Source of the DNA: an uncultured Muribaculaceae bacterium
GTDB lineage: Bacteria; Bacteroidota; Bacteroidia; Bacteroidales; Muribaculaceae
Direction of reading: 5' to 3'
Assembly: GCA_964562375.1 (NCBI GenBank)
Contig: CAZLSW010000001.1
Coordinates: forward strand, 32,871 to 96,870
DNA: 64,000 nt
The notes beneath the pieces are model-generated. The model did not search any database. It was not told the origin of the DNA and was given only the letters and a program-made list of their open reading frames with translations. The translations under genes were made by a program, and so were the position numbers. Shown here piece by piece: positions 16,103 to 55,442 of the stretch (its first letter is position 1; the number at the start of each line of letters is the position of its first letter).

Positions 16103-16648
16103 ATGGTAATCTCAATTTCACAATCTGAAATGCTGGTTCTGTGGCGCCAACTGCGCTATAATGAGCCTATTAGAAACGACGCCGCGGTAACCCGTGTGGA
16201 TGGTGTCGACCGCGACCGTCTCCACCAAGTGGAAATGCGCAACTGGTACCTCAATCTCCTGGCTACTGGTCATTTACGCTACCTGAAAATTAGCGATATC
16301 GCCACCCAGGTCGCCGTAACCGACATGGGCGACGGCACGGGTAGAGTGCTGTTGCCTGAGAAGTGTGTACGTCCACTGTGTGTTACCTTGGACGGCTGGG
16401 ATCGCTGCGCTCGGGTGGTGGAGCCCGATTCCCTAGAGGCTGAGATGCAGCTCAATGAATTCAGCCGGGGTAGAACGGTTGAGCCGGTGGCCGTGCATTA
16501 TCCGGGTCAACTGAGGCTATACTCCCTGGTCGATGGAGTAACGCCCAAGATCACATCCCTGCGCTGCGTCATGGAGCCCTCCGACGGCGTCTACGAGCTC
16601 GACGACAGCGCCCTATTAACCATTAACCCTTTAACCATTAACCATTAA
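16103..16648 (+). CDS. Hypothetical protein, first gene of the portal-like cluster
   Basis: 181-aa ORF ending 5 nt before the portal-like gene. The last codons are encoded by a (TTAACCA)n repeat. No family recognised. Confidence 0.5.
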   Translation: MVISISQSEMLVLWRQLRYNEPIRNDAAVTRVDGVDRDRLHQVEMRNWYLNLLATGHLRYLKISDIATQVAVTDMGDGTGRVLLPEKCVRPLCVTLDGWDRCARVVEPDSLEAEMQLNEFSRGRTVEPVAVHYPGQLRLYSLVDGVTPKITSLRCVMEPSDGVYELDDSALLTINPLTINH

Positions 16649-16652
16649 ACAA

Positions 16653-18032
16653 ATGGAAACCACTGAAAAAATTATCTCCCTTGAGGTCCTCGCCGCCTCC
16701 CGACGTGCCTGGAACCGCATGGCCAACATCCGCCAAAACCGCTCCCGTTTCAAGGATTTCACCTACGGCAAACAATGGGGCGACAAAGAGAAAACACCTG
16801 AGGGTATCACCCTCACCGAAGAGCAACTCACTATCAATCAAGGTGCTCGTCCCCAAACCAACAACCTCATCCGTCAGATGGTGAAGACCATCATTGGTCG
16901 ATATCGCCAGCAACAGGCCGAGCGACAAATCCAGCACGGCCTCAAGGGCCTTTATCGCCGAAATATGCTCCCCGAACTCGATTCCCGGCTCCTCGAGGAA
17001 TTCCTAATCTCGGGTTGCGCTATCCAACGTATAAGCACCGAAACCACCATGAAAGGCCGCGGCCCATGGGTGGAGAACGTAAATCCCAACACATTCTTTG
17101 TCAACGACTTCCGCGATCCTCGCGGCTGGGACGTGGAGCTTCTTGGCATGGTGCATGATTGGAGCCTACGTGAGGTGATCATGCGCTTCGGCCACGGCGA
17201 CCCCGACCGTATAGAGCGCCTTCGCGAGGTATACAGCATTGTCCGAGGAGAGTCGTTCCTCAATGGCGATTTTCTTGGCGGTCCTACCGACCGCTGCCGG
17301 GTAATCGAGGCTTGGACCCTTGAGAGTCATGGACTTATCGAAGTCCACGACCCCGTGAGAGGCGTCTATGAGGTGTTGGACGCCGCCTGCATCGATGATG
17401 TCAACGCTCAAAACGGCCAGCGACGCCGTAAAGGTATCCCCGAGCGTCGCGTGCGCCAGTGCATATCCACATTCTGGCGTTGCCGTTACATGTCGCCCAC
17501 AGGCGAGTTATTGCACAGTTATATCGCTGAGCAGCACCCATTTGTATTCAAGTTTTACCCCCTCACCGACGGCGAGGTACATTCCTTTGTCGAGGATATT
17601 ATCCATCAGCAAAAGCACGTCAACCGCATCATCACAATGGTCGATCAAGTGATGCGCACTTCAGCCAAGGGCGCTCTCCTTTATCCCGTGCAGTGCCTCA
17701 CAAAGGGTACCTCAATCAAGGACATTTCTAAGGTGTGGAGCGCACCCGACGCCGTCATTCCCTACAACGCTTCCAGCCTCGGCGAACCCCACCAGATCAC
17801 GACCTCCTCCGGCGACATTGGAGCCTACAACCTTTTGAATCTCGAGCTCCAACTCTTGCAGGATGTCTCTGGCGTTGGCGACGCCCTGTTGGGCAAAAAT
17901 ATCTCGGCCGCCAAGGGCGAAGGGGTATACGAGGCTCAGGTGAGAAACGCCACAATCGCCATCTCCGACCTTCTCGAAACATTCCAATCTCTCGTTGAAC
18001 AACGTGATCAAAAGTTGTTAAAATTGCAATAA
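16653..18032 (+). CDS. Phage portal-like protein
   Basis: The N-terminal RQNRSRFKDFTYGKQWGD...TEEQL...QGARPQTNNLI resembles the Y-x-G-x-QW opening of portal proteins. The C-terminal LELQLLQDVSGVGDALLGKN...AQVRNATIA resembles the portal stem and helix region. Recognition is by eye only. Confidence 0.5.
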   Translation: METTEKIISLEVLAASRRAWNRMANIRQNRSRFKDFTYGKQWGDKEKTPEGITLTEEQLTINQGARPQTNNLIRQMVKTIIGRYRQQQAERQIQHGLKGLYRRNMLPELDSRLLEEFLISGCAIQRISTETTMKGRGPWVENVNPNTFFVNDFRDPRGWDVELLGMVHDWSLREVIMRFGHGDPDRIERLREVYSIVRGESFLNGDFLGGPTDRCRVIEAWTLESHGLIEVHDPVRGVYEVLDAACIDDVNAQNGQRRRKGIPERRVRQCISTFWRCRYMSPTGELLHSYIAEQHPFVFKFYPLTDGEVHSFVEDIIHQQKHVNRIITMVDQVMRTSAKGALLYPVQCLTKGTSIKDISKVWSAPDAVIPYNASSLGEPHQITTSSGDIGAYNLLNLELQLLQDVSGVGDALLGKNISAAKGEGVYEAQVRNATIAISDLLETFQSLVEQRDQKLLKLQ

Positions 18033-18081
18033 TAGCAAAAATAATTGTAAGCTGTGCAATGAAATTGCCCATGCCGACTTG

Positions 18082-18089
18082 TAAATTTG
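18082..18089 (+). promoter_or_regulatory. Bacteroidetes-type -7 promoter box TAAATTTG
   Basis: Exact TAnnTTTG 31 nt upstream of the ATG at 18120. It overlaps the TTG that opens the ORF-track ORF at 18087, arguing for the later start. Confidence 0.45.
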
Positions 18090-18119
18090 TCAAAAATTCT
18101 AAGATATACATCTAAAACT

Positions 18120-18566
18120 ATGACAACTCGAAACACACAATCAATCTTGCGTCAGCGACGCGATCGCCACTTGGTTTTGGCGATCCGTCGCGTGATTCAG
18201 GAGGCTCACCACCGCGGCGAAATGCCCCTGATGAGCGAGGTCGCCGCAAGGGCCGTTAAGCAAGCCGCCCCCGGCTATTACGTGGAATATTCCACAGCTC
18301 AGCAGATGATGTACCGCAGCGTCGACCACTCACGGCTGTCGCCCCTCCATCAGGTAATGTGGCAAGAGATACGGCAAAAAGCCCAAGGGCGTATCGACAA
18401 TGGTCAAGCACCATCCATGGCTCGCGCCGTCGAAGAGGTCCTGCTTTTGGAGCCTGCCTCCCGTTACTTCATTACCCCCCAGCACGCCCAGCGCATCTAC
18501 CAGCGCCACCGCCACCGCAGGAAGGAAGGCGGTTCGACCTCCTCCCTCCAATATTCCTCTCGTTAG
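18120..18566 (+). CDS. Hypothetical basic protein in the portal-like cluster
   Basis: 148 aa from the ATG at 18120, Arg/His-rich, with its own -7 box. No family recognised. Confidence 0.45.
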   Translation: MTTRNTQSILRQRRDRHLVLAIRRVIQEAHHRGEMPLMSEVAARAVKQAAPGYYVEYSTAQQMMYRSVDHSRLSPLHQVMWQEIRQKAQGRIDNGQAPSMARAVEEVLLLEPASRYFITPQHAQRIYQRHRHRRKEGGSTSSLQYSSR

Positions 18567-18715
18567 TTCAACTTTCTCAAGTGTTGAAACCACGAATTAA
18601 CACTAATGAACACCAACAAATTAACAGGGTTTCTAATAAATTTTAGAGAGCTAACGCTCTTTAATTAACACTAATGCAGATAGCGTTGCGTTATGGAAAT
18701 TCGTGTTGATACTTC
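18560..18715 (+). repeat. AT-rich 3'-flank repeat element, copy B
   Basis: Shares TAGTTCAA.TTT..CAAGT...GAAACCAC.AATTAACACTAAT with copy A in direct orientation. The sub-block CACTAATG..GATAGCGTT.C.TTATGGAAATTCGTGTT is inverted relative to copy A. Confidence 0.7.
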
Positions 18716-18762
18716 TCCCAGCCCGGTCACGTCCCCTCCTTAATCCTTAATCCTTTATTTAT

Positions 18763-19164
18763 ATGACAGTTATCTCTTTATCCACTGTGGAAAAAACCAT
18801 CTACGCCCTGGCTGCATTGCGCAGCCACTACTCCCGCCGTCGTTCCGAGACGGTGCCCCTGTTGACCCGCGACCACGGGCCGGCCCTCCGACTGCTGGCC
18901 GTCGACGCTGTGGCCGACATCGCCCAGCGCATCGGCATCGAAGCCACCTACGACGGCGACGACCAGGTGACACTCCAGCTCGACTCTGACGACCTCACCG
19001 TTGTCCGGCTTATCCACCATGCCGCGGCTATGCTCACCCTCTCCACGGCCAATGTGGGCTACGACCCGGAGGCCGTCGACGACTACGCCGACAAGGCTGA
19101 GGGACTCATCGCCCAGCTTCCCCAGCCTAGCCTCACCATAGAGCGCAAGCTCCCCTACATGTAA
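18763..19164 (+). CDS. Hypothetical small helical protein (size and position compatible with a head-tail connector or adaptor)
   Basis: 133-aa ORF with an ATG start, followed by a perfect 18-bp hairpin. The functional guess rests only on context and size. Confidence 0.4.
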   Translation: MTVISLSTVEKTIYALAALRSHYSRRRSETVPLLTRDHGPALRLLAVDAVADIAQRIGIEATYDGDDQVTLQLDSDDLTVVRLIHHAAAMLTLSTANVGYDPEAVDDYADKAEGLIAQLPQPSLTIERKLPYM

Positions 19165-19166
19165 GA

Positions 19167-19208
19167 AAATCGTAATAACGTTATCACTCAATAACGTTAT
19201 TACGATTT
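19167..19208 (+). terminator. Perfect 18-bp stem-loop closing the portal-like cluster
   Basis: AAATCGTAATAACGTTAT / ATAACGTTATTACGATTT with a 6-nt loop, starting 3 nt after the stop at 19164. Confidence 0.6.
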
Positions 19209-19465
19209 CGTAATCAAATGATTACAATGGTTATTCACAAGGCGAGGGCAGTTATTATGCCAGCCAGAAGCGCCAGGCGCGCCAAGCGGGATATCCACCG
19301 AATGTGGCGGTCGCGGCGAGCGAAGCTGTCTTTGATATCGGTTACAATCGGTAGCATAGTTGTGTAAGCAAAGAAAGGGTTAATAAACTAAGTGAACATC
19401 ATTTTCCTTTATAACAATCAACTATGCCTTTTTGGCTCGCCAAAACCGCAAAAAAAGCGTTAAAG

Positions 19466-19566
19466 CAGGAGGTCCCGCCGTGTCGGCGGGACAGTTAGAC
19501 AAGAAGTCCCGCCGTGTCGGTGGGACAATAATTCTCTCGGGCCGACACGGCCCGACATCCTACTTG
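19466..19566. repeat. REP-like palindrome cluster (3 copies) downstream of asnS
   Basis: GTCCCGCCGTGTCGGCGGGAC, GTCCCGCCGTGTCGGTGGGAC and the inverted GGGCCGACACGGCCCGAC, with AGGA(A/G)GT / ACAG flanks. Confidence 0.9.
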
Positions 19567-19568
19567 CT

Positions 19569-20957
19569 TTAGAATTCGGCGTTCTTCGGCGTACGCGGGA
19601 ATGGGATCACGTCGCGGATATTGGTCATGCCCGTCACGAAAAGCACCAGACGCTCGAAACCAAGACCGAAACCGGCGTGAGGCACCGTGCCGAAACGGCG
19701 AGTATCGAGATACCACCACATGTCCTTCATCGGGATGTTCAGCTCCTCGATGCGGGCCATGAGCTTGTCGTAATTCTCCTCGCGTTCCGAGCCACCGATG
19801 ATCTCCCCGATGTTGGGGAACAGCACGTCCATGGCGCGCACGGTCTTGCCGTCCTCGTTCTGCTTCATGTAGAAAGCCTTGATCTCCTTGGGATAATCGG
19901 TGAGGATCACCGGGGTCTTGAAATGCTCCTCCACCAGGTAGCGCTCGTGCTCGCTCTGCAGGTCGGCGCCCCAGTAGACGGGGAACTCAAATTTCTTTCC
20001 CGATTTCTCCAAGATTTCCACGCCCTCGGTGTAGGTAAGGCGCTTGAATGGCTTGGCCAGTACCCCCTCCAAGCGCGCGATCAGCTCGGGGTCGTACATT
20101 TTCTGCAGGAACTCGATGTCGTCGCGGCAGTTGTCAAGGGCGTAACGGATGCAGTATTTCACGAACTCCTCGGCCAGGTCCATGTTGTCGGTGATGTCGT
20201 AGAAGGCCATCTCAGGCTCAATCATCCAGAACTCGGCCAAGTGGCGCGGGGTATTGGAATTCTCGGCGCGGAAGGTGGGGCCGAAGGTGTAAATCTCGCC
20301 GATCGCGGTGGCTCCAAGCTCGCCCTCCAGTTGGCCCGACACGGTCAATGCCGTGGGCTTGCCGAAGAAGTCCTGCGAGTAATCCACGGCACCCTCCTCG
20401 GTTTTGGGCAACTCATTAAGGGGTAAGGTGGTAACCTGGAACATCGCGCCGGCGCCCTCGCAGTCGCTTGCCGTGATCAACGGCGTGTTGAGGTAGTAGA
20501 AACCTTTATCCTGGAAGAACTTGTGGATGGCGTAGGCCAAAGCCGAGCGCACGCGCAGGACGGCCCCGAACGTGTTGGTGCGGGGACGCAAGTGGGCAAT
20601 CTCGCGCAGGAACTCCAGGGAGTGTCCTTTCTTCTGCAGCGGATAAGCCTCGGGATCGGCTGTGCCGTACACCTCAAGCTCGGTAGCTTGGATCTCGGTG
20701 GCCTGGCCCTTGCCCATCGATTCCACGAGGTCGCCCACGACGTGGATCGAGGCCCCGGTGGTGATAGGCTTAAGCTGCTCCTCGGTGAAGCGGTCGAGGG
20801 GGAACACGATCTGGATATTGTTGATCGTGGAGCCGTCGTTCAGTGCCACAAACTGCACGTTTTTGTTGCCGCGGCGGGTGCGCACCCACCCTTTGACGCT
20901 CACTTTCTCGCCCACTTTATCCTTGGTGAGAATATCCTTGATTTTGCTTCTTTTCAT
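19569..20957 (-). CDS. asnS: Asparagine--tRNA ligase
   Basis: Class II motifs [21 protein letters not shown] and GFGLGFERL. Start at [10 protein letters not shown] (ATG 20957). Confidence 0.95.
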
Positions 20958-20974
20958 TGTGATTGATTTATTAA

Positions 20975-21062
20975 TGCACTCGTGCACTCATGCATTCGTT
21001 TACTCGTTTACTCGAAAGCTCGAAGGCTCGAATGCACGAATGAACGAATACACGAATGCACG
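20975..21062. repeat. Array of eleven 8-nt units (TGCACTCG / TTTACTCG / AATGCACG types) in the asnS leader
   Basis: Strict 8-nt periodicity. The left and right halves contain mutually complementary words (TGCATTCG vs CGAATGCA), giving an imperfect long palindrome. Confidence 0.85.
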
Positions 21063-21088
21063 AGGGATCGAAATTACGATTTTTGAGA

Positions 21089-22627
21089 TTATTCGAAGGA
21101 GCCCATTTTGAGGAAGTTAACCTCTTCCTGGGTGAGGTAACGCCAGCGGCCGCGGGGGAGGTTTTTCTTGGTCAGGCCCGCGAAGTACACGCGGTCGAGC
21201 TTGGTCACGTGGTAACCCAGCGACTCGAAGATACGGCGAACGACGCGATTGCGGCCCGAGTGGATCTCGATGCCCGCCTGGTTGCGGTCGGTCTCGGTGG
21301 CGTAGGAGATGGCGTCGGCGTGGATGGGGCCGTCGTCAAGCTCGATGCCGTCGGCGATACGCTGCATATCCTCCTCGGCGATGTCCTTGTCACACCATAC
21401 GTGGTAGATTTTCTTCTTCACGTATTTGGGGTGGGTGAGCTTGGAGGCCAGGTCACCGTCGTTGGTCAACAGCAGCACGCCGGTGGTGTTGCGGTCCAAG
21501 CGACCCACGGGGTAGATACGCTCGTTGCATGCGCCCTTCACCAGGTCCATAACCGTGGTGCGGCCGTTGGGGTCGTCGCTCGTGGTGACGCAATCCTTCG
21601 GTTTGTTAAGCAGGATGTAGCATTTGCTCTCCAGAGCCACCACCTTCTCATCGTATTCAACGACATCCGAGTGGGAGATCTTGGTACCCAGCTCGGTAAC
21701 AACGTTGCCGTTGACCTTCACCAAGCCCTGCTGGATGAACTCGTCGGCCTCGCGGCGCGAGCAGATACCGGCGTTGGCCATGAACTTGTTCAGACGAATC
21801 TGCTCATTGGGATCGGGTATCGGCATTTCGTACTCGATACGCTTGGGGCGCGGAGTGAAGCTCTTGCCGCGTGAGGGCATGAACCCTTGCTGACCCTGCT
21901 GGCGACGGTTGTTGTACCCGCCTTGCTGACGGTTGTTGTAGCCGCCCTGGCGGTTATTGTAACCACCCTGGCGGTTGTTGTTGTAGCCACCCTGACGGTT
22001 GTTGTTGTAGCCACCCTGGCGGTTGTTGTTGTAGCCGCCCTGACGGTTGTATCCGCCCTGTTGGCGATTCTGGCCTTGGTGACCGGGGTTGTTGTAACCG
22101 CCTTGGCGATTGTTGTATCCGCCCTGGCGATTGTTGTTGTAACCGCCTTGGCGGTTGTTATTGTATCCACCCTGCTGGCGAGGCTGGTAGCCGCCGGCGT
22201 TGGGACGCGGCTGGTAGCCTGTGTTGGGGCGGGGCTGGTAGCCTTGGGTTGGGGTAGCGCCGGCTGCGCCCTCGGCGGTCTCGCCTTCCTTGGCCTCGCC
22301 CTGGGGGGCGGCGGAGGGGGTACCGTAGGTGTTGGGACGCGGCTGATAGCCACCACCTTGGTAGTTATTGTTATAGCGATTGTAGCCCCCCTGCTGGCGA
22401 TTTTGGTAGCCTCCAGCGTTGTTGTAGCGGTTTTGGTAACCACCCTGTTGGCGTGGCTGATAGGGGCGCGGCTGGTAGGGGCGGTCGCCCGTGGGGGCGG
22501 CGTCGCTGTTGTGATCGTTCATTGAGCTGTAGCTCGACTTTTCATAGCGTGAGCCTTCGTGATCGTCGGCCACCGCACGGCTCTCGCCGATTCTGGGTCG
22601 TTTCCCTTTTTTGTCGTTACTTTCCAT
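21089..22627 (-). CDS. Pseudouridine synthase (RluB/RsuA family) with a roughly 250-aa N-terminal Gly/Tyr/Asn/Gln/Arg repeat region
   Basis: C-terminal half has an S4 domain (IRLNKFMANAGICSRREADEFI) and the catalytic VGRLDRNTTGVLLLTNDG. The N-terminal half is NRQGGYNN-type repeats. Confidence 0.88.
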   Translation of the reverse strand: MESNDKKGKRPRIGESRAVADDHEGSRYEKSSYSSMNDHNSDAAPTGDRPYQPRPYQPRQQGGYQNRYNNAGGYQNRQQGGYNRYNNNYQGGGYQPRPNTYGTPSAAPQGEAKEGETAEGAAGATPTQGYQPRPNTGYQPRPNAGGYQPRQQGGYNNNRQGGYNNNRQGGYNNRQGGYNNPGHQGQNRQQGGYNRQGGYNNNRQGGYNNNRQGGYNNNRQGGYNNRQGGYNNRQQGGYNNRRQQGQQGFMPSRGKSFTPRPKRIEYEMPIPDPNEQIRLNKFMANAGICSRREADEFIQQGLVKVNGNVVTELGTKISHSDVVEYDEKVVALESKCYILLNKPKDCVTTSDDPNGRTTVMDLVKGACNERIYPVGRLDRNTTGVLLLTNDGDLASKLTHPKYVKKKIYHVWCDKDIAEEDMQRIADGIELDDGPIHADAISYATETDRNQAGIEIHSGRNRVVRRIFESLGYHVTKLDRVYFAGLTKKNLPRGRWRYLTQEEVNFLKMGSFE

Positions 22628-23035: not shown

Positions 23036-23102
23036 TCAATATCATGATTGTGAAAACTCGCCTTCAGCGTTTCCTGAGGAGATGAGCACTCAAGGGGGAG
23101 GA

Positions 23103-48262: not shown

Positions 48263-49927
48263 ATGCTCGAAAGATTCCTCGATAAAACCCAATTCTCCTC
48301 CTACGACGACTTCATGGAGAATTTCCATGTCAACGTCCCGGAAAATTTCAATTTCGGCTACGACGTGGTCGACGCCTGGGCCGCTGAAGACCCCACGCGC
48401 CCGGCCCTGTTGTGGACCAACGAGGCTGGCGAGGAGCGCCGATTCACCTTCGCCGACCTCAAGCGCGACTCCGACGCCACCGCATCGTTCTTTCAGGAGC
48501 TGGGCATAGGCCGCGGCGACCGCGTGATGCTCATTCTCAAGCGCCACTACCCATTCTGGTGGGCCATCACCGCCCTCCACAAGTTAGGTGCGGTCGTCAT
48601 CCCCGCCACCCACCTGTTGACCGAAAAAGATATCATCTACCGCTGCGAGCGAGCCGATATCAAGGCGATTGTGGCCTCCGGCGACCCCATCGTCACCGGC
48701 CATATCGACAAGGCCCTTCCACAATGCCCTTCGGTAAAGTACAGGATTTCAACCGGTCCGCTGGTCCCCGAGGGCTGGCTCGACTTCAACACTGGCGTGG
48801 AATTGGCCCCCGAGTTCAAGCGTCCCGAGCATCCCAACACCAACGACGACATCTCGCTGCTCTACTTCACCTCCGGCACCACCGGCGAGCCCAAAATGGT
48901 GGCCCACGATTTCACCTACCCCTTGGGCCACATAATCACAGCCTCCTACTGGCACAACCTCCATCCCGGATCGCTGCATCTCACCCTGGCCGACACCGGT
49001 TGGGGTAAGGCCGTATGGGGGAAACTTTATGGCCAATGGATCGCTGGCGCCGAGGTCTTTGTCTACGACTTCGAGAAATTCGAGCCAGTGGATGTCCTGG
49101 AGATGATCCACAAGTACAAAATCACCTCCTTCTGCGCCCCTCCCACGGTGTTCCGCTTCCTCATTCGCGAGGACCTCACGAAATACGACATATCATCCCT
49201 GAAATATTGCACCATCGCCGGCGAGGCCCTCAACCCCTCGGTCTACGAGCAGTGGCTTAAATTGACGGGAATCAAACTTATGGAGGGCTTTGGCCAGACC
49301 GAGACCACCCTCACCATCGCCACTTATCCCTGGCTCGAGCCAAAGCCCGGCTCCATGGGCAAGAAAGGACCGGAATACGACATCGACCTCCTCACCCCCG
49401 ACGGCCGCTGGGCCGAGGACGGCGAGCAGGGAGAAATCGTGGTTAAGCTCCCCAAGGACGGCCACAAGCCCCTGGGATTGTTCAAGGAGTACCTGCGCGA
49501 CCCGCAGCTCACCGCTGAGGCCATCAACAATGGCGTCTATCACACGGGCGACGTGGCTTGGAGAGACGAGGATGGGTACTACTGGTTCGTTGGGCGCACC
49601 GACGACGTTATCAAGTCGTCAGGCTATCGTATTGGCCCGTTCGAGGTCGAGTCGGCCCTCATGACCCATCCCGCCGTGGTGGAGTGCGCCATCACCGGCG
49701 TCCCCGACGACATCCGCGGCCAGGTGGTGAAAGCCACTATCGTCCTCGCCAAGGACTACGTGGAACGCGCCAAGACCGAGGGTGAAAAGCTCATCAAGGA
49801 GATACAGAACCACGTAAAGCGCGTCACGGCCCCCTATAAATATCCCCGAATCATCGAATTCGTCAAAGAGCTCCCCAAAACCATCAGCGGCAAAATACGC
49901 CGTGTGGAAATCCGCGACAAAAAATAG
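48263..49927 (+). CDS. AMP-binding acyl-CoA synthetase (medium-chain/acetyl-CoA-synthetase-like)
   Basis: YFTSGTTGEPKMV, GFGQTE, YHTGDVAWRDEDGYYWFVGRTDDVIK and a terminal SGKIRR. Confidence 0.9.
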   Translation: MLERFLDKTQFSSYDDFMENFHVNVPENFNFGYDVVDAWAAEDPTRPALLWTNEAGEERRFTFADLKRDSDATASFFQELGIGRGDRVMLILKRHYPFWWAITALHKLGAVVIPATHLLTEKDIIYRCERADIKAIVASGDPIVTGHIDKALPQCPSVKYRISTGPLVPEGWLDFNTGVELAPEFKRPEHPNTNDDISLLYFTSGTTGEPKMVAHDFTYPLGHIITASYWHNLHPGSLHLTLADTGWGKAVWGKLYGQWIAGAEVFVYDFEKFEPVDVLEMIHKYKITSFCAPPTVFRFLIREDLTKYDISSLKYCTIAGEALNPSVYEQWLKLTGIKLMEGFGQTETTLTIATYPWLEPKPGSMGKKGPEYDIDLLTPDGRWAEDGEQGEIVVKLPKDGHKPLGLFKEYLRDPQLTAEAINNGVYHTGDVAWRDEDGYYWFVGRTDDVIKSSGYRIGPFEVESALMTHPAVVECAITGVPDDIRGQVVKATIVLAKDYVERAKTEGEKLIKEIQNHVKRVTAPYKYPRIIEFVKELPKTISGKIRRVEIRDKK

Positions 49928-49934
49928 CAGTACG

Positions 49935-50035
49935 ATCAAGCCACCGTGCCCCGCGGTCAGAAAGGAAGCCGGGCCGTGTCGGCCCGGCAGTATAAACAAG
50001 CCACCGTGCCCCGCGGTTTGCCGCGGTGGTCTTCC
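49935..50035. repeat. Nested composite: CCGCGG-type element interrupted by a REP-like copy, then a complete CCGCGG-type element
   Basis: CAAGCCACCGTGCCCCGCGG | TCAGAAAGGAAGCCGGGCCGTGTCGGCCCGGCAGTATAAA | CAAGCCACCGTGCCCCGCGGTTTGCCGCGGTGGTC. Confidence 0.85.
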
Positions 50036-50083
50036 CCCCAGTTCGATTTCCCTCGATTTCCCCCGATTTCAGTCGAAAAAATT

Positions 50084-51199
50084 ATGAAATATTCCCGCCT
50101 AGCCGTCAAAATCGGCTCCAACGTCCTCTCCCGCCCCGACGGCACCCTCGACATCACCCGAATGAGCGCCCTGGTCGACCAAGTGGCCGAGCTGCGTCGC
50201 ATGGGTCTCGACATCGTCATGATCTCATCGGGAGCAGTCGCCGCCGGCCGCTCCGAGCTCAGAAAGGATGTCGGGCCGTGTCGGCCCGACAGAGACACGC
50301 CAAAACCCCTCGACTCCGTCTCCCAGCGACAGCTCTTCTCAGCCGTCGGCCAAGCCAAATTAATCAACCGCTACTACGAGCTCTTCCGCGACCACGGCCT
50401 ATCCTGCGGCCAGGTCCTCACCACCAAAGAAAACTTCTCCACCCGCCGCCATTACCTCAACCAAAAGCACTGCATGGAGGTAATGCTCGCCGCTGGCGTC
50501 ATTCCTATCGTCAACGAAAACGACACCGTGTCGCTCACCGAACTGATGTTCACCGACAACGACGAGCTCTCGGGCCTGATCGCCGCCATGATGGGCATGG
50601 ACGTTTTGGTGATCCTAAGCAATATAGATGGTGTATACGACGGCGATCCCGCCGACCCGGAGTCGCGTCTTATCACCGACGTGGCTCCGGTTGACGACCC
50701 CACGCGCTACGTGCAAGCGGCCAAATCCTCGCTCGGCCGCGGGGGGATGGGCACCAAGATGCGCATCGCCCGCAAGGTGGCCTCCGAGGGCCTCGATGTG
50801 ATTATCGCCAACGGCAAACGCCCCAACATCCTCATCGACCTTATCTCGCGTGACGACACCCCCTGCACCGTCTTCCACGCCGCTGCCGTCGAGCCCTCGA
50901 GCGTTAAGAAATGGATTGCCCACAGCGAGGGATTCGCCAAGGGTGAGGTGCATGTCAACCAAGGCGCTGCCGACGCGCTCCTCTCAGGCACCGGCGCCAG
51001 CCTTTTGGCTGTAGGAGTTACCCGCATTGTGGGCGATTGGGAAAAGGACGACGTCGTGAAAGTAATCGCCCCCGATGGCCGCCAGATCGCCCTCGGCCGA
51101 GTCAGCTACTCCTCGTCCACTACTGCCAAGGTAATGGGCCGCACAGGCCAGCGCCCAGTAATCCACAGCGATTACCTCTACCTCGAAGGCTGCCCTTAA
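50084..51199 (+). CDS. proB: Glutamate 5-kinase (with PUA domain), carrying one in-frame repeat insertion
   Basis: VKIGSNVL, SSGAVAAG, AVGQAKL and a C-terminal PUA domain. Start at MKYSRLAV (ATG 50084). Confidence 0.92.
   Translation: MKYSRLAVKIGSNVLSRPDGTLDITRMSALVDQVAELRRMGLDIVMISSGAVAAGRSELRKDVGPCRPDRDTPKPLDSVSQRQLFSAVGQAKLINRYYELFRDHGLSCGQVLTTKENFSTRRHYLNQKHCMEVMLAAGVIPIVNENDTVSLTELMFTDNDELSGLIAAMMGMDVLVILSNIDGVYDGDPADPESRLITDVAPVDDPTRYVQAAKSSLGRGGMGTKMRIARKVASEGLDVIIANGKRPNILIDLISRDDTPCTVFHAAAVEPSSVKKWIAHSEGFAKGEVHVNQGAADALLSGTGASLLAVGVTRIVGDWEKDDVVKVIAPDGRQIALGRVSYSSSTTAKVMGRTGQRPVIHSDYLYLEGCP
50261..50295. repeat. REP-like copy inside the proB CDS
   Basis: AGAAAGGATGTCGGGCCGTGTCGGCCCGACAGAG, read through as RKDVGPCRPDR between SSGAVAAGRSEL and the AVGQ region. 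Confidence 0.95.
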
Positions 51200-51227
51200 T
51201 GCTTTAAAGGTTTAATGATTTAAATCC

Positions 51228-52412
51228 TTATAGCTTTAAGGCTTTAAGGCTGAGGCGATCCACCAGCGTCGCCAGCGCGCAATCCCCCGTGACGTTACAC
51301 GCCGTCCCGAAATTATCCATCGCGATATACAACGCGATCATCAACGCATTCATCTCCTCGGTAAAGCCAAGGATTGACGACAAGATGCCCAATGAAGCCA
51401 TAATCGCGCCGCCTGGGATACCCGGCGCGGCCACAATCGCTATACCCAGCATCGCGGCCAGTTGCAGGAACATCCCCGCGTCGTAGGGCACGCCCTGGTA
51501 AATCATCAACGCCAGCGCGCACGCCACGATTTTCAGTGCCGAGCCGCTCATGTGGATTGTCGCGCATAGGGGGATAACAAAACCCGCCACGCTCTCGTTG
51601 ACACCCGTCTTGATTGTCTGCTTCAGCGTCACTGGTATCGTGGCGGCTGAGCTCTGCGTGCCCAGCGCGGTCATATACGCCGGAAGCATCGTGCGCAGCA
51701 TCTTCAGCGGATTCCGCTTGGCGGCCGCTCCCGCGATGCTGTATTGCAGCAACAAGATGCCGATATGAAGCACGAAAATCACCGCGATCACCTTCACGAA
51801 CGTCTGCAGGATCGCTCCCACCTGCCCCTCCATGGTCATCGTAAGGAAGATTCCGAAGATGTACACCGGCAGCAACGGGATTATCACGCCGCGGATGGTC
51901 AAGTCGATGATGTCGCGAAATTGTCGGGCCGCTTTGCTCAGACCGTCAGCGTGGGTGTAAGCTATGCCGATGCCCACGGTGAACGACAGCACAAGCGCGG
52001 TCATCACCCCCATCGGCGCCGGTATCTCCACCGTGAACCACGGCTTAGAAAGGATGTCGGGCCGTGTCGGTCCGACAGTATAGGCCCCCTCAGGTGAAAT
52101 GATATCCGGGAAAATCGCCGCGCCGGTAAAATATGAAATCGCGCCCGCGAGGAACGTCGCCGAATAGGCAAGCACCACGGTTGTTAGCAGCATCTTGCCG
52201 GCACCGCGCCCGATGTCGCCGATTGCCGGCGTGACAAAGCCGATGATAATCAGCGGAATAAGGAACCCCAGGAACTGGCCGAAAATACCGTTGAATGTGG
52301 CGCACAGAGCCGCCAACCACCCCGGCGCCACCATTCCCGCGCCTATTCCCAGCGCGATAGCTATTATAATGCGGGGAAGCAACCCCATCTTGGTTAACGC
52401 TTTGAAACTCAT
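51228..52412 (-). CDS. Sodium:dicarboxylate/amino-acid symporter family transporter (SstT-like), carrying one in-frame repeat insertion
   Basis: Polytopic protein with PLCATIHMSGSAL and AAPGIPGGAIMA motifs. Start at MSFKALTK (ATG 52412); the longer ORF to 52493 only translates repeat DNA. Confidence 0.85.
   Translation of the reverse strand: MSFKALTKMGLLPRIIIAIALGIGAGMVAPGWLAALCATFNGIFGQFLGFLIPLIIIGFVTPAIGDIGRGAGKMLLTTVVLAYSATFLAGAISYFTGAAIFPDIISPEGAYTVGPTRPDILSKPWFTVEIPAPMGVMTALVLSFTVGIGIAYTHADGLSKAARQFRDIIDLTIRGVIIPLLPVYIFGIFLTMTMEGQVGAILQTFVKVIAVIFVLHIGILLLQYSIAGAAAKRNPLKMLRTMLPAYMTALGTQSSAATIPVTLKQTIKTGVNESVAGFVIPLCATIHMSGSALKIVACALALMIYQGVPYDAGMFLQLAAMLGIAIVAAPGIPGGAIMASLGILSSILGFTEEMNALMIALYIAMDNFGTACNVTGDCALATLVDRLSLKALKL
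52047..52080. repeat. REP-like copy inside the transporter CDS
   Basis: AGAAAGGATGTCGGGCCGTGTCGGTCCGACAGTA, read through on the minus strand as TVGPTRPDILS. Confidence 0.95.
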
Positions 52413-52450
52413 ATTCCTAAAACGCAGAAATCCCCCGCTTATTGCCTTAG

Positions 52451-52562
52451 CTAAGTAAGTAGGAAGTCCCGCCGTGCCGGCGGGACAGCTCAAGTAGGAA
52501 GTCCCGCCGTGCCGGCGGGACAGTTTTCTCTGGCGGGCCGTGCCGGCCCGCCTTCCTTTCTA
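52451..52562. repeat. REP-like palindrome cluster (3 copies) upstream of the transporter
   Basis: Two AAGTAGGAAGTCCCGCCGTGCCGGCGGGACAG copies and one GGCGGGCCGTGCCGGCCCGCC variant. Confidence 0.92.
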
Positions 52563-52690
52563 AATGAGGGATACCCCTTGTAACAATCCTGTAACAAAAA
52601 ATCTCAAAATTTAATCATCAGTTATTCAATTATTTATCCTTAAAAATCCCTATCTCTTAAAATTTTTAACAAAAAATATTTGTAAAATTA

Positions 52691-52719
52691 TTTGCACAGA
52701 AAAATATTTTGTATATTTG
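52691..52719 (+). promoter_or_regulatory. Candidate promoter (-33 TTTG, -7 TATATTTG) for the ECF sigma factor
   Basis: TATATTTG at 52712-52719 and TTTG at 52691-52694. The 17-nt spacing is slightly short. 78 nt upstream of the ATG. Confidence 0.45.
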
Positions 52720-52796
52720 AGACGTGAAACGGAAAAATCGACTATTTACCCTATCGCGCTATTTACTAATTTCTATTCATCTAAAACTTCACTACT

Positions 52797-53300
52797 ATGG
52801 GCTCCTCTAAATTCCAATCCAATCTCATGAAGCTGCAAAGCAATATGCTCAACTTCGCTTATATGCTTACCGCCAACCGCGACGACGCTTACGACCTCCT
52901 CCAGGACACCACCCTCAAAGCTCTCGACAACGAAGAGAAGTACATCGACAACACCAACTTCAAAGGCTGGGTGTTCACCATCATGCGCAACATCTTCATC
53001 AACAATTACCGCCGCGTGGCCCGCGCAGCCACTGTTGTCGACTCCACCGAAAACCTCTACCACCTGAATCTCTCCCAGGATTCAGGCTTGGAAACTCCCG
53101 AAGGCGCCTTTGGCGCCAAGGAGATCACTCAATACCTGAGCGAGTTTCCCGACGAATATCGCGTTCCTTTCTCGATGCACGTCGCCGGCTACAAGTACAA
53201 CGAGATCGCCGAGAAGATGAACCTCCCCCTTGGCACCGTCAAGAGCCGCATCTTCTTCGCCCGCCAGCGCCTCCAGAAGCGTTTCGCCGATTACCGCTAA
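52797..53300 (+). CDS. RNA polymerase sigma-70 factor, ECF subfamily
   Basis: Region 2 (DLLQDTTLKAL...GWVFTIMRNIFINNYRR) and region 4 (YNEIAEKMNLPLGTVKSRIFFARQRL). No adjacent anti-sigma gene. Confidence 0.9.
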   Translation: MGSSKFQSNLMKLQSNMLNFAYMLTANRDDAYDLLQDTTLKALDNEEKYIDNTNFKGWVFTIMRNIFINNYRRVARAATVVDSTENLYHLNLSQDSGLETPEGAFGAKEITQYLSEFPDEYRVPFSMHVAGYKYNEIAEKMNLPLGTVKSRIFFARQRLQKRFADYR

Positions 53301-53445
53301 GTAGGAGGTCCCGCCGTGCCGGCGCCCCAGCTTAAGTAGGAAGTCCCGCCGTGCCGGCGCCCCAGCTTAAGTAGGAAGCTGGGCCGTGTCGGCCCAGCAG
53401 TATCAACAAGCCACTGTGCCCCGCGGTTTGCCGCGGTGGTCTCCT
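53298..53445. repeat. REP-like cluster (3 copies) plus a CCGCGG-type element, starting on the sigma-factor stop codon
   Basis: TAAGTAGGAGGTCCCGCCGTGCCGGCGCCCCAGC x2, then AGGAAGCTGGGCCGTGTCGGCCCAGCAG and CAAGCCACTGTGCCCCGCGGTTTGCCGCGGTGGTC. Confidence 0.92.
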
Positions 53446-53482
53446 GAAAAAGCCCCCATAGTTACTTAAATACGCAATTGAA

Positions 53483-53510
53483 AGGGCCGTCCCCGGCTGG
53501 GGACGGCCCT
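53483..53510 (-). terminator. Stem-loop downstream of the capsid-like gene
   Basis: AGGGCCGTCCCC-GGCT-GGGGACGGCCCT, a perfect 12-bp stem, followed on the minus strand by TTTCAATT. Confidence 0.6.
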
Positions 53511-53553
53511 CAATCATGCGTCAGCCCTGGGAGGGGACGGCCTTAATCACCTG

Positions 53554-54975
53554 CTACTGCTCTTCCTCGGCGGCTGCCAGGGCTGCTTCCTCTTCCTTGG
53601 TGAGCCACTTCACGCGCACGTGGGTCTCAGGGTAGCGGAGAACCATGCAAGAGGCCTCGGTGATGACGATCGCGTCGGTGTTGCGCTGGCCCGAGGTGCG
53701 CAGGTCCAGTTTCTCCGTCTGGAAGGGAATGTGGCAGTACTTGGTCACATACTCAGGGTCGAGAATCAATCCGTCGCGCTCGTGGCCGCACTGGTCGAAC
53801 GTCTCGCAAGGCAACACGTAGAGGGAGCCGAATTTGCTCACGATCTCGTTGAAGTCGATGCCCCACTTGGTCACGCGTTCCTGGGAATTCACCAGGCGAT
53901 TGAACGTTAGGCAGTTGATCTCCTCCACAAGTTTCGACCCCGCAATCAAGATCTTGCGCGTCGATCCGTTGTTCTTGGTGAACGCCTTGTAGCACAGCGC
54001 CACCAGGTCCTTCTCTTTGAAGGTCGACGGCATATTGTGGTCGCGGCCGGCCTGGTTCCAGATTCCGCCGGTGAGGTAAATCTCCCCCTTGGTGGGGTCG
54101 TTGACCTTGGCCTTGGTGCCGAACAGGAAGTTCTTCTCCATGCCCAGGCGCATGTCGTAGATGGCTACCTCCTCCTGGTCGCTGAGGGTCCAGCCTACCT
54201 CTTTGTTGGCCAGTTTCATAAGCGTCGACTGCTCGATCTGGGCCTTGAAGATTTGGCAGTAGTTGTCGGCCTTGGTGGGTACCGCCTCGAAGGAGGTCGT
54301 CTGCACGTCAAGCTCGCCGGCAGCGCGGCCCATGCGGATGAGTTTGGTCCCCTTGTCCATTGCGGGAACCACGGCCACGCCTGAGGTGTCGAAGTTGTTT
54401 ACCGAGATCACGTTGACCGTCTTGGTTTGAGTGCGCGAAACCACATAGAGCACGAGGGGCTGTTGGCTCGAGGCCGTAATGGAGGGCACGAGAATCGTCT
54501 CCGAGGCCTCAAACATGTTCTCCTTGGCTACCGTCAGGGTGAGAGGAGAGTTGGTCGAGCTCCCTTCGGTGGACTTCGCTAGCTCGGTTTCAGTCTCCTT
54601 GGTGTCCACCGAGTAGTACTGCACAGTCATTGAGTCGGCGGCGCGGCTGCCGGTGCAGCGAGTAATCTGGTCAACCGGGGTGGCCATGGGACGGATCTTG
54701 GTGATGCGGTTGTCGATCTCGCTACGCAAGAGGCCCGGGGCTACCTCCTCGGTGACCGAGGTGGTGAGGGGGCCGTCGGTGACGTGGGTCCCTCCCGCGG
54801 TACCCGCTACAACAGCCGCCGAAGCGTAGATCATGTCTCCGTCGCCGCCCAAGGCGAGCCAAAGGGCCACTGTGGCAATCGCCACGAGAAGGGTTACTAC
54901 GCCGTTGTCGCTTTTCACCCACTGGATCATCTGGTCAATCATGCCAGAAAGATTCTTCACATTGAAATTTTTCAT
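53554..54975 (-). CDS. HK97-fold major-capsid-like protein (SU10/DUF5309-type resemblance)
   Basis: 473 aa. ...EIDNRITKIRPMATPVDQI... resembles the N-terminal isP.dTPf signature. Also LSDQEEVAIYDMRLGMEKNFLFG and a C-terminal NTDAIVITEASCMVLRYPE. Recognition is by eye only. Confidence 0.55.
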   Translation of the reverse strand: MKNFNVKNLSGMIDQMIQWVKSDNGVVTLLVAIATVALWLALGGDGDMIYASAAVVAGTAGGTHVTDGPLTTSVTEEVAPGLLRSEIDNRITKIRPMATPVDQITRCTGSRAADSMTVQYYSVDTKETETELAKSTEGSSTNSPLTLTVAKENMFEASETILVPSITASSQQPLVLYVVSRTQTKTVNVISVNNFDTSGVAVVPAMDKGTKLIRMGRAAGELDVQTTSFEAVPTKADNYCQIFKAQIEQSTLMKLANKEVGWTLSDQEEVAIYDMRLGMEKNFLFGTKAKVNDPTKGEIYLTGGIWNQAGRDHNMPSTFKEKDLVALCYKAFTKNNGSTRKILIAGSKLVEEINCLTFNRLVNSQERVTKWGIDFNEIVSKFGSLYVLPCETFDQCGHERDGLILDPEYVTKYCHIPFQTEKLDLRTSGQRNTDAIVITEASCMVLRYPETHVRVKWLTKEEEAALAAAEEEQ

Positions 54976-55112
54976 AAAAGTTGAATGTTGAAAGTTGAAT
55001 GTTGAAAGGTTTCTAGTTCCTAGTTTTTAGTTAATGGGGTAATTTTAAAGGAGGAAAGGATAAAAGGGGCTATTATAAGCCCCCGTTTCGGGGGGGTGGG
55101 GGCCGATTCGGC

Positions 55113-55442
55113 TTAGTCCCAGATGGAGCGTCGGATGTGATTGAGGATCAGGGCCTTGGCCGACTGCGTGGGAGCTTCCAGCTCGCGAGGCCGCGACATC
55201 AGCTCCTCAATGCGTTCATTACGGCCCTTAAGATAACCGCGGCGCTCAGCCGCAGCAAGAACCTCTTCAAGATCCACTCGAGTGACCTCCGGCCTGGGCC
55301 CTTGCGACGCCACTGGCTCGGCTGAGGTGGCACCCTCTTCATTGTGCCCCGTGCACTCTTCACTGAGCCCTGTGCGCTCTTCGTTGTGCCCTGTGCACTC
55401 TTCATTGTGCACTTCCTGGTTGATGGTTTCATTTTCTTCCAT
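55113..55442 (-). CDS. Small acidic/helical protein upstream of the capsid-like gene (scaffold-like position)
   Basis: 109 aa. N-terminus built from 4 x 21-nt repeats (HNEECTG/HNEERTG/LSEECTG/HNEEGAT) and a helical charged C-half (LEEVLAAAERRGYLKGRNERIEELM). Confidence 0.45.
   Translation of the reverse strand: MEENETINQEVHNEECTGHNEERTGLSEECTGHNEEGATSAEPVASQGPRPEVTRVDLEEVLAAAERRGYLKGRNERIEELMSRPRELEAPTQSAKALILNHIRRSIWD

Follow-up and report, generated by a model that had tools for sequence, protein, structure and literature searches.

Do phage head genes that lie in two places among the housekeeping genes of a Bacteroidales chromosome belong to one system, and what could that system be for? 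We examined this question in a 64,000-nt stretch of DNA, called the window here, from an uncultured Muribaculaceae bacterium (GCA_964562375.1, contig CAZLSW010000001.1, positions 32,871-96,870, forward strand). An earlier note had described a portal-like gene with three small partners at 16.1-19.2 kb and a capsid-like gene with a scaffold-like ORF at 53.5-55.4 kb. Both descriptions were confirmed: the first gene matches P22_portal and its small neighbors are conserved genes, and the second matches SU10_MCP and adjoins a conserved gene for a 109-aa protein. The gap of about 35 kb said to be filled by core genes was verified by gene content. Approximately 35.5 kb of housekeeping genes (an asnS-type synthetase, a pseudouridine synthase, MutS, MnmG, an ammonium transporter, purD, an aldolase, proB and others) separates the capsid locus from the portal locus. 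The loci are also host-like in composition, as claimed, with a GC content of 0.52-0.59 that falls within the range of the window. The only tRNA gene in the window (Pro) adjoins neither locus. We refer to the capsid locus as module A and to the portal locus as module B. Their features are as follows:

16043..16060, plus strand: module B promoter box TTTGGTGAAAATGACATA, the same 18-mer as in module A
16082..16089, plus strand: module B -7 element TAACTTTG, unchanged in all aligned relatives
16103..16648, plus strand: putative head-to-tail adaptor, 181 aa, T7 gp11 / SU10 gp11 type (profiles, weak fold match, position)
16653..18032, plus strand: portal protein, 459 aa, P22_portal (PF16510; Pfam and PHROG profiles)
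18120..18566, plus strand: candidate small terminase subunit, phrog_27246 (148 aa from ATG 18120; 159 aa from TTG 18087)
18763..19164, plus strand: conserved protein, 133 aa, from a family whose members have 130-160 aa and an aromatic tail at the C-terminus
53481..53510, minus strand: GC-rich hairpin, then TTT, just past the capsid stop
53554..54975, minus strand: major capsid protein, 473 aa, SU10_MCP/DUF5309 (PF17236; Pfam and PHROG profiles)
55113..55442, minus strand: scaffold-like protein, 109 aa (position and conserved C-terminus)
55479..55486, minus strand: module A -7 element TAATTTTG, of the Bacteroidota TAnnTTTG type
55508..55525, minus strand: module A promoter box TTTGGTGAAAATGACATA, an exact 18-mer kept in the relatives L003 and L006

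Module A consists of the scaffold-like gene and the major capsid gene. The capsid protein scored above the curated threshold for Pfam SU10_MCP over the whole domain (residues 85-457, E 4.6e-51, 174.5 bits against a cut-off of 24.1) and matched phrog_26635 (E 3.5e-80). SU10_MCP is described as a family of HK97-fold proteins, and the capsid protein is predicted to share that fold. We found approximately 2795 homologs of it. The scaffold-like protein has a variable, repeat-rich N-terminus and a conserved C-terminal module (…RGYLKGRNERIEE…RRSIWD). In L001, a contiguous cassette, the gene that precedes the capsid gene encodes a protein 38% identical to this C-terminus (E 2e-11). The family occurs in 52 loci, and its profile weakly matches phage genes located directly upstream of capsid genes (E 1e-5). 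We infer from gene position that the 109-aa protein acts as a scaffold. The two -7 elements were read from the sequence, as was the hairpin, for which this is the only source. A generic terminator scan did not call the hairpin, which is a possible terminator of module A.

Module B consists of genes for the putative adaptor, the portal, a protein from the terminase operon of related phages, and the 133-aa protein. The three small partners of the earlier note are the first, third and fourth of these. The portal protein exceeded the curated threshold of Pfam P22_portal (E 1.6e-15, 57.1 bits against a cut-off of 26.1) and matched PHROG 156 'portal' (E 2e-30). It covers only positions 5-409 of the 594-position profile, which indicates that the C-terminal part of phage portals is absent; the protein has 459 aa, against 656 aa in phage relatives.

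The putative adaptor gene immediately precedes the portal gene, and its product is 44% identical to that of the gene between capsid and portal in L001. This family is present in 77 loci. Its profile aligned with gp45 of the Bacteroides phage BKO1-TP3 (hhalign 94%, E 1.4e-7) and with a 215-aa protein of the IMG/VR phage contig L099 (hhalign 97%, E 3e-11). A Foldseek search of the PDB with the AF2 model of the adaptor (pLDDT 61) gave a best E of 6.5e-3, with a probability of 0.97 and a TM of about 0.4. The top 12 matches were all to short-tailed phages (phicrAss001, SU10, Pa223, Carin-1, DEV, GP4 and VP1) and lay in their neck, portal-vertex or tail assemblies, and among these 12 only the SU10 chains could be traced to the adaptor, gp11 (PMC9509320). 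Searching BFVD gave a best E of 6e-5 and two matches named 'Head to tail adaptor'. The modeled fold is consistent with podovirus adaptors, although the match is weak.

The 148/159-aa protein matched phrog_27246 (E 1.8e-5), and its family is present in 36 loci. It had no Pfam or PDB match, and its AF2 model (pLDDT 47) was unusable. Gene position in two phages makes it a candidate small terminase subunit: the L099 homolog lies immediately upstream of the gene for the large terminase (TerL) and overlaps it (E 1e-16), and the BKO1-TP3 homolog, gp49, opens the operon gp49-gp50-gp51, of which gp51 is TerL. Homologs also adjoin TerL in loci L148 and L152. The 133-aa family was found in 34 loci, always as the last gene of the cassette. 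It had no Pfam, PDB or PHROG match, and its match to BKO1-TP3 gp36 was marginal (E 4.5e-4).

The two modules share a promoter. TTTGGTGAAAATGACATA occurs in the window as an exact 18-mer in two copies only, one at each locus, where such a pair would be expected by chance 0.03 times. Both copies lie 21 nt upstream of a TAAYTTTG box. Of 52 cassettes, 51 have such a box in the corresponding position before the scaffold gene. All modules we examined have a matching box, specific to the lineage, that precedes a TAnnTTTG -7 element by about 22 nt and lies in the place expected for a -33 element; the module A box occupies this same position. Loci L013/L014, L076, L065, L067, L108, L110 and L113 show the pattern with different boxes. 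The motif CA[TA]TATCGCA-N21/22-TAnnTTTG occurs 14 times in 2.85 Mb, in each case directly upstream of a scaffold gene or of the p829 gene described below. In alignments of relatives the promoter elements are conserved and the spacers between them have diverged; upstream of the adaptor gene, for example, the box is kept in L101-L105 with 0-1 mismatch. The host-style -7 boxes of the earlier note are therefore real and more specific than claimed. Its proposed link to the adjacent ECF sigma factor was not supported: this adjacency is seen in close relatives only and is not conserved. A common promoter on all modules, of which there are two to three separated ones per genome with matching boxes, makes it possible that a single regulator or sigma factor switches them on jointly.

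We compared the window with about 250 related loci. The usual form is a contiguous cassette for the scaffold-like protein, capsid, adaptor and portal, followed by proteins of 140-160 aa and 130-160 aa. This order was seen in approximately 68 of the 80 best-matching species genomes, and no further gene is a conserved neighbor. The two-locus state seen here is derived: in this lineage a cluster of 6-8 genes that is otherwise contiguous has split. Relatives about 92% identical in protein sequence have the same split and keep the flanking genes on both sides, dapB/asnS at one locus and parAB/ECF sigma at the other. At least 495 species genomes encode a protein related to the capsid protein, and the genes are conserved over hundreds of Muribaculaceae-type genomes. 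Taxonomic assignments are unreliable for many MAGs and absent for the metagenome contigs.

The ORFs are intact in about 170 loci, and the genes are under purifying selection. At dS values of 0.5-0.85, dN/dS is 0.087 for the capsid gene, 0.069 for the portal gene, 0.076 for the adaptor gene, 0.22 for the candidate small terminase gene and 0.23 for the 133-aa protein gene, an overall range of 0.07-0.23; neighboring housekeeping genes have values of 0.01-0.08 and the scaffold-like gene 0.51. Pairwise distances for capsid and portal are correlated (r = 0.90). No integrase, replication, tail-fiber or lysis gene was found within about 10 kb of the roughly 170 loci. There were no att-like repeats next to any locus examined, in agreement with the earlier note for both loci, and no receptor-binding or nozzle gene was identified in the system.

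A third module, outside this window, encodes TerL and a protein of about 820 aa that we call p829. This p829-TerL module is fused upstream of the cassette in eight loci (L037, L051, L060, L067, L073, L108, L110 and L114) and lies 5-7 kb away on the opposite strand in two (L076 and L113). In 16 metagenome loci, each with 5 kb or more of flanking sequence on either side, only host genes surround it. TerL has a dN/dS of 0.084 and p829 one of 0.15; p829 had no match in Pfam, PHROGs, PDB or NCBIfam. Both genes belong to the system in other lineages, as a separate or fused module. The earlier statement that neither locus has a terminase in this window was borne out by tblastn of the 64-kb window with phage and cassette TerL, but this absence does not extend to the system. 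We expect the p829-TerL module of this lineage elsewhere in its genome.

The nearest viral relatives of the capsid, portal, adaptor, terminase-operon protein and TerL are the Bacteroides temperate phages BKO1-TP3, BF1-TP2 and BS-TP4 and contig L099. Within this group identities are 37-47% for the capsid (37-39% for the three Bacteroides phages), 32-36% for the portal and 37-39% for TerL, and the adaptor (gp45, phrog_22135) and terminase-operon protein (gp49, phrog_27246) are shared as well. The three Bacteroides phages differ in having complete genomes of 64-68 kb, portals about 200 aa longer and another gene order. BKO1-TP3, the one phage of the three whose gene content we give from the full genome, also has an integrase, a repressor, replication genes, an endolysin and giant tail or ejection proteins. 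A rough neighbor-joining tree places the phage-like contigs L098-L100 near one of the cassette clades, so a single domestication event is not established.

The two loci are probably modules A and B of one vertically inherited, multi-locus, domesticated podovirus-derived head and packaging system that Muribaculaceae-type Bacteroidales of the gut have long retained. The system joins phage-derived structural and packaging genes, free of replication, integration and excision genes within the surveyed 10 kb, as in a viriform, with vertical inheritance and purifying selection across the host clade. The ancestor was probably a single cluster of about 11 kb (p829, TerL, scaffold, capsid, adaptor, portal, terminase-operon protein and 130-160-aa protein) that broke at different points in different lineages, here between the capsid and adaptor genes. 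A common regulator or sigma factor could co-activate all modules through the special promoter. A procapsid would then form from scaffold and capsid protein on a portal dodecamer, the terminase would load it with DNA, and the adaptor ring would cap or extend the portal vertex. Since replication and excision functions are absent from the system itself, the cargo would come from the host genome. We regard the product, as far as its genes describe it, as a candidate gene-transfer-agent-like particle that may be released and deliver its DNA. Circumstantial support comes from the mouse gut, where Muribaculaceae account for about 19% of bacterial DNA in virus-like particles (preprint 10.64898/2026.07.08.737213). 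We found no description of this system in the literature we searched, in line with the earlier statement that none was known for Bacteroidales.

We weighed this model against others that involve phages more directly. It is rather unlikely that heads filled with host DNA borrow tails, fibers and lysis functions from a helper phage of the BKO1-TP3/L099 type. Complete related phages do exist, the loci hold head, neck and terminase genes with no fiber or lysis gene within 10 kb in about 170 loci, and in T7- and SU10-type phages nozzle and fibers dock onto the adaptor ring (PMC9509320). However, p829 itself could be a nozzle or tail protein, hybrid assembly is doubtful because the known phages are only 32-47% identical, and the dedicated promoter may point to control by the host, not to control triggered by a phage. 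Such borrowing would resemble that of capsid-forming PICIs, except that the element is immobile. A defensive role, in which capsid, shortened portal, adaptor and terminase parts made by the host would join or subvert the assembly and packaging of related invading phages and abort their production, also seems improbable. Phage satellites are known to interfere in this manner, the system is common in a habitat rich in phages, and its portal lacks a C-terminal part of about 135 aa found in phage relatives. Yet none of nine proteins tested matched a PADLOC model, and a complete co-evolving set of scaffold, capsid, portal, adaptor and TerL, retained under strong purifying selection, fits self-assembly better than poisoning. 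Most defense systems are mobile and patchily distributed; this one is syntenic and occurs in nearly all sampled relatives.

The remaining alternatives are very unlikely. The set is phage-derived, fragmented and stripped of genes for tail, lysis, replication and integration, as the remnants of an old prophage without present function would be. A cryptic or decaying prophage is largely refuted by ORFs that are intact and under selection, by loci that are dispersed yet conserved between syntenic flanks with no integrase, and by promoter elements that persist as their spacers diverge, with matching boxes on separated modules. These observations support the earlier reading of co-opted head genes fixed in the host. 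An active satellite, PICI-like island or miniature prophage is just as hard to credit. The gene content resembles that of capsid-forming satellites, and a few cassette contigs (L092-L095) are listed as viral in IMG/VR, but the loci have no adjacent integrase, replication gene or att-like repeat, their ordinary host flanks are conserved between species, and the modules here are 35 kb apart. We rejected assignment to the PICIs or cf-PICIs on the same absence of mobility genes.

Several known systems share parts of this architecture. Encapsulins are bacterial HK97-fold shell proteins of viral origin used by the cell, but they lack portal, adaptor and terminase and take up protein cargo through targeting peptides. 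cf-PICIs have genes for a capsid, portal, connector and small terminase of their own and none for tails; they are mobile and strain-variable, with integrase, replication genes and att sites, whereas the Muribaculaceae system has none of these and consists of dispersed parts with syntenic host flanks. FpGTA I/II of Faecalibacterium comprise an operon of about 10 kb (possible TerS, TerL, portal, scaffold, capsid and proteins like those of short-tailed phages) and a second operon elsewhere, and their particles appear tail-less (PMC12946183). By gene content this is a comparable head and packaging set in a gut anaerobe, though one of the Bacillota, and EM, proteomics and packaging evidence exist for FpGTA, whereas the Muribaculaceae system is known from genes alone. 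RcGTA of Rhodobacter capsulatus and its alphaproteobacterial relatives, compared here by description, resembles a siphovirus and has a complete tail, head spikes, lysis genes and known host regulators, whereas the Muribaculaceae set is of podovirus type (SU10 capsid, P22 portal, T7-like adaptor) without recognizable tail or lysis genes. Both nevertheless consist of phage-derived structural and packaging genes that are fixed in the chromosome at several loci, lack replication and integration genes, and are vertically inherited under purifying selection.

Profile searches and the ORF listing confirmed the portal-like and capsid-like genes that the earlier note had proposed as anchors of two separate phage-head loci. 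The scaffold-like ORF and the capsid gene constitute module A, and the portal gene with its three small neighbors constitutes module B.

16103-16648: small portal neighbor encoding a 181-aa protein (ORF listing)
16653-18032, + strand: P22-type portal, 459 aa (Pfam PF16510, 57.1 bits against a cut-off of 26.1; phrog_156, E 2e-30)
18087-18566: small portal neighbor encoding a 159-aa protein (ORF listing)
18763-19164: small portal neighbor encoding a 133-aa protein (ORF listing)
53554-54975, - strand: SU10-type major capsid protein, 473 aa (PF17236/DUF5309, E 4.6e-51; phrog_26635, E 3.5e-80)
55113-55442, - strand: scaffold-like ORF, 109 aa, upstream of the capsid gene (ORF listing)

Approximately 35.5 kb of ordinary genes lie between the two loci (asnS-type synthetase, pseudouridine synthase, MutS, MnmG, ammonium transporter, purD, aldolase, proB, and others). 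The GC content of both loci is unremarkable, and tblastn with phage and cassette large terminase (TerL) queries gave no match within the 64-kb window. These results agree with earlier claims that core genes part the loci, that their composition is host-like, and that the window lacks a terminase. The single tRNA in the window adjoins neither locus.

We found that each of the two window loci forms half of one conserved cassette. Thousands of proteins were retrieved by homologue searches, and the few that have source names are called Muribaculaceae or Bacteroidales. Capsid and portal hits often lay on contigs of equal length, and these contigs carry a contiguous cassette, in which a small ORF, a capsid gene, a ~178-aa gene, and a portal gene lie on one strand among housekeeping genes. 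A scan of one genome per GTDB species identified a capsid relative in at least 495 genomes. We mapped the six window proteins onto the best 80 of these loci and clustered all flanking ORFs; across the data sets, many of the taxon labels are automatic MAG labels, and metagenome contigs have no label. The canonical order (scaffold-like, capsid, 181-aa, portal, 159-aa, 133-aa) was present in ~68 of the best 80 loci. No other conserved neighbor emerged from the flanking ORFs of these 80 loci, the runner-up being an Ig-domain protein at 21 loci, and no integrase, tail, or lysis families were among them. One MAG, RGIG6431, contains two distinct cassettes (L029 and L089), with 36% of sites differing between the two capsids and 48% between the two portals; either the genome holds two copies or the bin is mixed.

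The break in the window's lineage falls between the capsid gene and the 181-aa gene because the 181-aa protein matches the product of a gene sitting between capsid and portal at another locus, L001 (44% identity). Close relatives of the window carry both halves with identical flanks (capsid 93% and portal 92% identical); in one of them, GCA_965328225.1, the halves are on different contigs. Module B is flanked in the window and these relatives by leuS … signal peptidase and dapB on one side and asnS and rluB on the other, and module A by parB and parA on one side and genes for an ECF sigma factor, an SDF transporter, and proB on the other. The synteny raised in the earlier note thus held for both loci in close relatives, and the adjacency of the ECF sigma gene did not extend beyond them. 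A single 37 kb inversion, from the capsid-adaptor spacer to the dapB side, would give back the canonical order. In the sister clade L013-L015, the two modules share a strand, with module B ~4 kb upstream of module A; since this clade was rearranged differently, at least two events are needed, and an origin by one inversion stays conjecture. A further clade (L040, L058, L078, L087, L088, and L091), together with L049, has scaffold and capsid genes with no module B within 10 kb.

Several other features were observed in these regions. The close relative L101 has a DDE transposase (15935-16909) inserted beside the pseudouridine synthase gene downstream of module B, and this insertion is absent from the window and from the relatives L102 and L103. 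A 468-aa ORF beside parB (window 57512-58918, - strand) has a lipoprotein-like N-terminus and a 465-aa counterpart in the close relative L003; it matched nothing in Pfam or NCBIfam. In the spacer that separates the ECF sigma gene from the capsid gene's 3' end, a 35-bp unit is repeated 2.3-2.7 times (97% match; 53298-53393), with nothing alike elsewhere in the 64-kb window.

We compared the cassette to phage genomes. Only three deposited phages matched, all of them Bacteroides temperate phages (BKO1-TP3, BF1-TP2, and BS-TP4), with capsid identities of 37-39% and portal identities of 32-36%. These phages also bear homologues of the 181-aa putative adaptor, the 159-aa terminase-operon protein, and TerL. 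Their portal is 656 aa long, whereas the cassette portal is ~460-470 aa. Of the nine relatives in IMG/VR, four are short contigs carrying the cassette itself, and L099, which encodes TerL and a tail fibre, is a genuine piece of phage. A rough distance-based tree placed phage-like IMG/VR contigs near one cassette clade. A single domestication event is likely. BKO1-TP3 gp51 (L011 17873-19987, PQ571269.1) is deposited as a 'tail spike protein' and matches large-terminase PHROGs; the 70-aa gp9 (L106 4510-4722) is labelled 'Portal protein', and the real portal is gp54. The 10.1-kb contig L095 (IMGVR_UViG_3300035327_000422) holds two copies of the cassette that form a perfect inverted duplicate (325-3782 and 9782-6325), which is probably an assembly artefact.

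The 181-aa protein matched BKO1-TP3 gp45 (hhalign 94%, E 1.4e-7) and a 215-aa protein of L099 (97%, E 3e-11; phrog_22135), and both phage counterparts lie two genes downstream of the capsid gene. We rejected gp46 as the adaptor counterpart because it did not match. The AF2 model of the 181-aa protein is moderate (pLDDT 61, with ~80 for core residues 63-160), and its 12 best PDB matches all came from short-tailed phages (phicrAss001, SU10 7Z47 chains A/B, Pa223, Carin-1, DEV, GP4, and VP1), within assemblies of the neck, portal vertex, or tail. Among the matched chains, only those of SU10 are tied to an adaptor, gp11 (PMC9509320). The model's BFVD matches were in agreement: the lowest E was 6e-5, and 'Head to tail adaptor' is the name given to two of the entries. 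We read the modeled protein as a putative adaptor ring seated on the portal clip. A word search found only three close adaptor homologues.

The profile of the 159-aa protein (phrog_27246) matched a 140-aa ORF that overlaps the TerL start in L099 (E 1e-16) and BKO1-TP3 gp49, with which the operon gp49-gp50-gp51 begins. This protein holds the classical small-terminase position and is, by gene position, a probable small terminase. A single-sequence AF2 model of its 148-aa form, from an alternative start, was too poor for a fold search (pLDDT 47.5). The family alignment contains two similar motifs, APxYYLxxxYAxRxL and ASRFFISxxYAxxL, followed by a basic C-terminal tail (window 18087-18566), and the motifs suggest a possible internal duplication. 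The 133-aa protein proved unrelated to the phage genes that follow the capsid gene (133 aa in L099; gp46 in BKO1-TP3), and that assignment was rejected.

A third module was found at loci of other lineages. Using tblastn with phage TerL, we located TerL homologues that immediately precede the cassette in L037, L051, L060, L067, L073, and L092-L094; the homologue in L076 is 7 kb away on the other strand. In TerL-bearing loci, TerL (~640 aa) is preceded and overlapped by a gene for a ~820-aa protein, p829; L065 has p829 without TerL. BKO1-TP3 gp34 (882 aa) was rejected as a p829 homologue, having an hmmsearch E of 0.008 but an hhalign probability of 2%. A TerL alignment used as the query against metagenome contigs gave 302 relatives, and we mapped all cassette and TerL profiles onto the best 80 of them. 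Among these 80, L108, L110, and L114 have full 8-gene clusters, L113 has TerL and the cassette on opposite strands, and L148 has the order p829-TerL-159-133. At 16 of the 80 loci p829-TerL is solitary, flanked on either side by 5 kb or more of other DNA, and at 13 TerL is alone. The p829-TerL flanks are host genes (SulP permease, GH5, CHAT-TPR, CHASE2, BspA-LRR, and subtilase). SulP precedes p829 in L037, where the cluster is full, as well as in L112, where the module stands alone; this suggests that the 8-gene cluster is the older state.

The separated modules share a promoter. An exact 18-mer, TTTGGTGAAAATGACATA, lies upstream of both window modules with TAAYTTTG 21 nt downstream, and it has only two copies in 64 kb against 0.03 expected. 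The window-lineage pattern is TTGGKGAAAATGACATA-N21/22-TAAYTTTG. Relatives keep the box and the -7 element, and the spacer between them has diverged. The box differs by lineage, yet it is identical at every module within one genome.

Lineage-specific boxes and the modules or genes that carry them
GGGAGRAAAACGCAGGG: modules A and B, in L013 and L014
GGATTTTTAAGG: p829, TerL, and scaffold, in L076 and L113
GTAACAATTTRTCCTAC: p829 and scaffold, in L067, L108, and L110

The commonest form, CA[TA]TATCGCA-N21/22-TAnnTTTG, occurred 14 times in the 2.85 Mb of sequence examined, 12 of them immediately before a scaffold gene and the other 2 immediately before a p829 gene. A JGI metagenome scan for a third module of the window's lineage gave no match to the window's box and -7 element. 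Generic sigma-70 and terminator scans were uninformative for Bacteroidota promoters. Matching boxes at separated modules point to one putative dedicated regulator or sigma factor, and no other finding argues as strongly as this shared promoter for continued joint function of the separated loci. The ECF sigma factor was dropped as a candidate because it lies beside the capsid gene in close relatives only. The spacer of module A (55485-55509, - strand) has a possible 10-bp hairpin overlapping the -7 box, with no obvious counterpart in module B.

The 109-aa ORF has a conserved C-terminal module that recurs, in other cassettes, in the gene preceding capsid, and its profile weakly matches phage genes in scaffold position. 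Within its N-terminal, fast-evolving part, a 21-nt unit is repeated 3.6 times (55335-55410), and directly upstream of the capsid start codon the 14-nt unit AAAGTTGAATGTTG (+ strand) is repeated 2.3 times (54977-55008); these may be the 'leader repeats' of the earlier note. Between the scaffold-like ORF and the capsid gene (55065-55084, - strand) is a hairpin that resembles a terminator and ends in a T-rich tail; it might set the scaffold:capsid product ratio. Near its N-terminus (residues ~25-45; 54820-54900), the capsid protein carries the hydrophobic stretch GVVTLLVAIATVALWLALG, which resembles a signal sequence or membrane anchor. A similar stretch is present in the BKO1-TP3 capsid protein (L011 14559-16013), and certain cassette capsid proteins, e.g., P0094 and P0109, begin downstream of it. 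The cassette has no protease gene.

We estimated selection by comparing the window to a ~92% relative (dS 0.5-0.85), and L067 to L073 for TerL and p829.

dN/dS of cassette, terminase-module, and neighboring genes
Capsid, window vs relative: 0.087
Portal, window vs relative: 0.069
Adaptor, window vs relative: 0.076
159-aa protein, window vs relative: 0.22
133-aa protein, window vs relative: 0.23
Scaffold-like, window vs relative: 0.51
Neighboring housekeeping genes, window vs relative: 0.01-0.08
TerL, L067 vs L073: 0.084
p829, L067 vs L073: 0.15

Pairwise distances of capsid and portal were correlated (r = 0.90, 2628 pairs). Judged from sequence, the system is chromosomally fixed, spread over several loci, and co-regulated, and a remnant prophage or a mobile satellite is a poorly supported explanation.

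The system comprises scaffold, capsid, portal, adaptor, large terminase, and probable small terminase genes, without replication, integration, fibre, or lysis genes. This predicted gene set fits a gene transfer agent (GTA)-like viriform of podovirus descent. The genes would form particles that would hold DNA cargo, be released, and deliver it. The main rivals take the same genes for a helper-dependent 'tail thief' or for an assembly-interference defence. Sequence and profile searches with the small proteins and p829 gave nothing significant in PDB, Pfam, NCBIfam, or PADLOC. A broader GTA reading, to which we give somewhat less than an even chance, is that Muribaculaceae may possess a family-wide, host-controlled, multi-locus GTA of independent podovirus origin, with its own promoter code, whose particles, made of head and neck, would transfer chromosomal DNA from cell to cell. 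Every piece has retained a matching box that co-evolves, so the regulator, the regulon, and the order of fragmentation are directly testable. Experiments look feasible because the carriers L067 and L076, listed in the mouse gut catalogue without a 'MAG:' title label, are apparently isolates in culture.

The system is a clean natural case of phage domestication, in which the same 6-8 genes are fused or lie in two or three loci by lineage. If the genes build DNA-filled particles, a dominant gut bacterial family would have a built-in, uncounted route of gene exchange, and mouse and human gut virome and 'transductome' data would need re-reading. A mouse preprint puts Muribaculaceae DNA at ~19% of particle-carried bacterial DNA and proposes no mechanism (10.64898/2026.07.08.737213). 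A GTA would be a possible source of the abundant Muribaculaceae DNA in gut virus-like-particle fractions. Full-text literature searches found no description of this system, consistent with the earlier statement that none was known for Bacteroidales. Another study describes GTA-like operons from Oscillospiraceae and Ruminococcaceae (PMC12946183), and the Muribaculaceae system, if the GTA reading is true, would be the first such agent in Bacteroidota.
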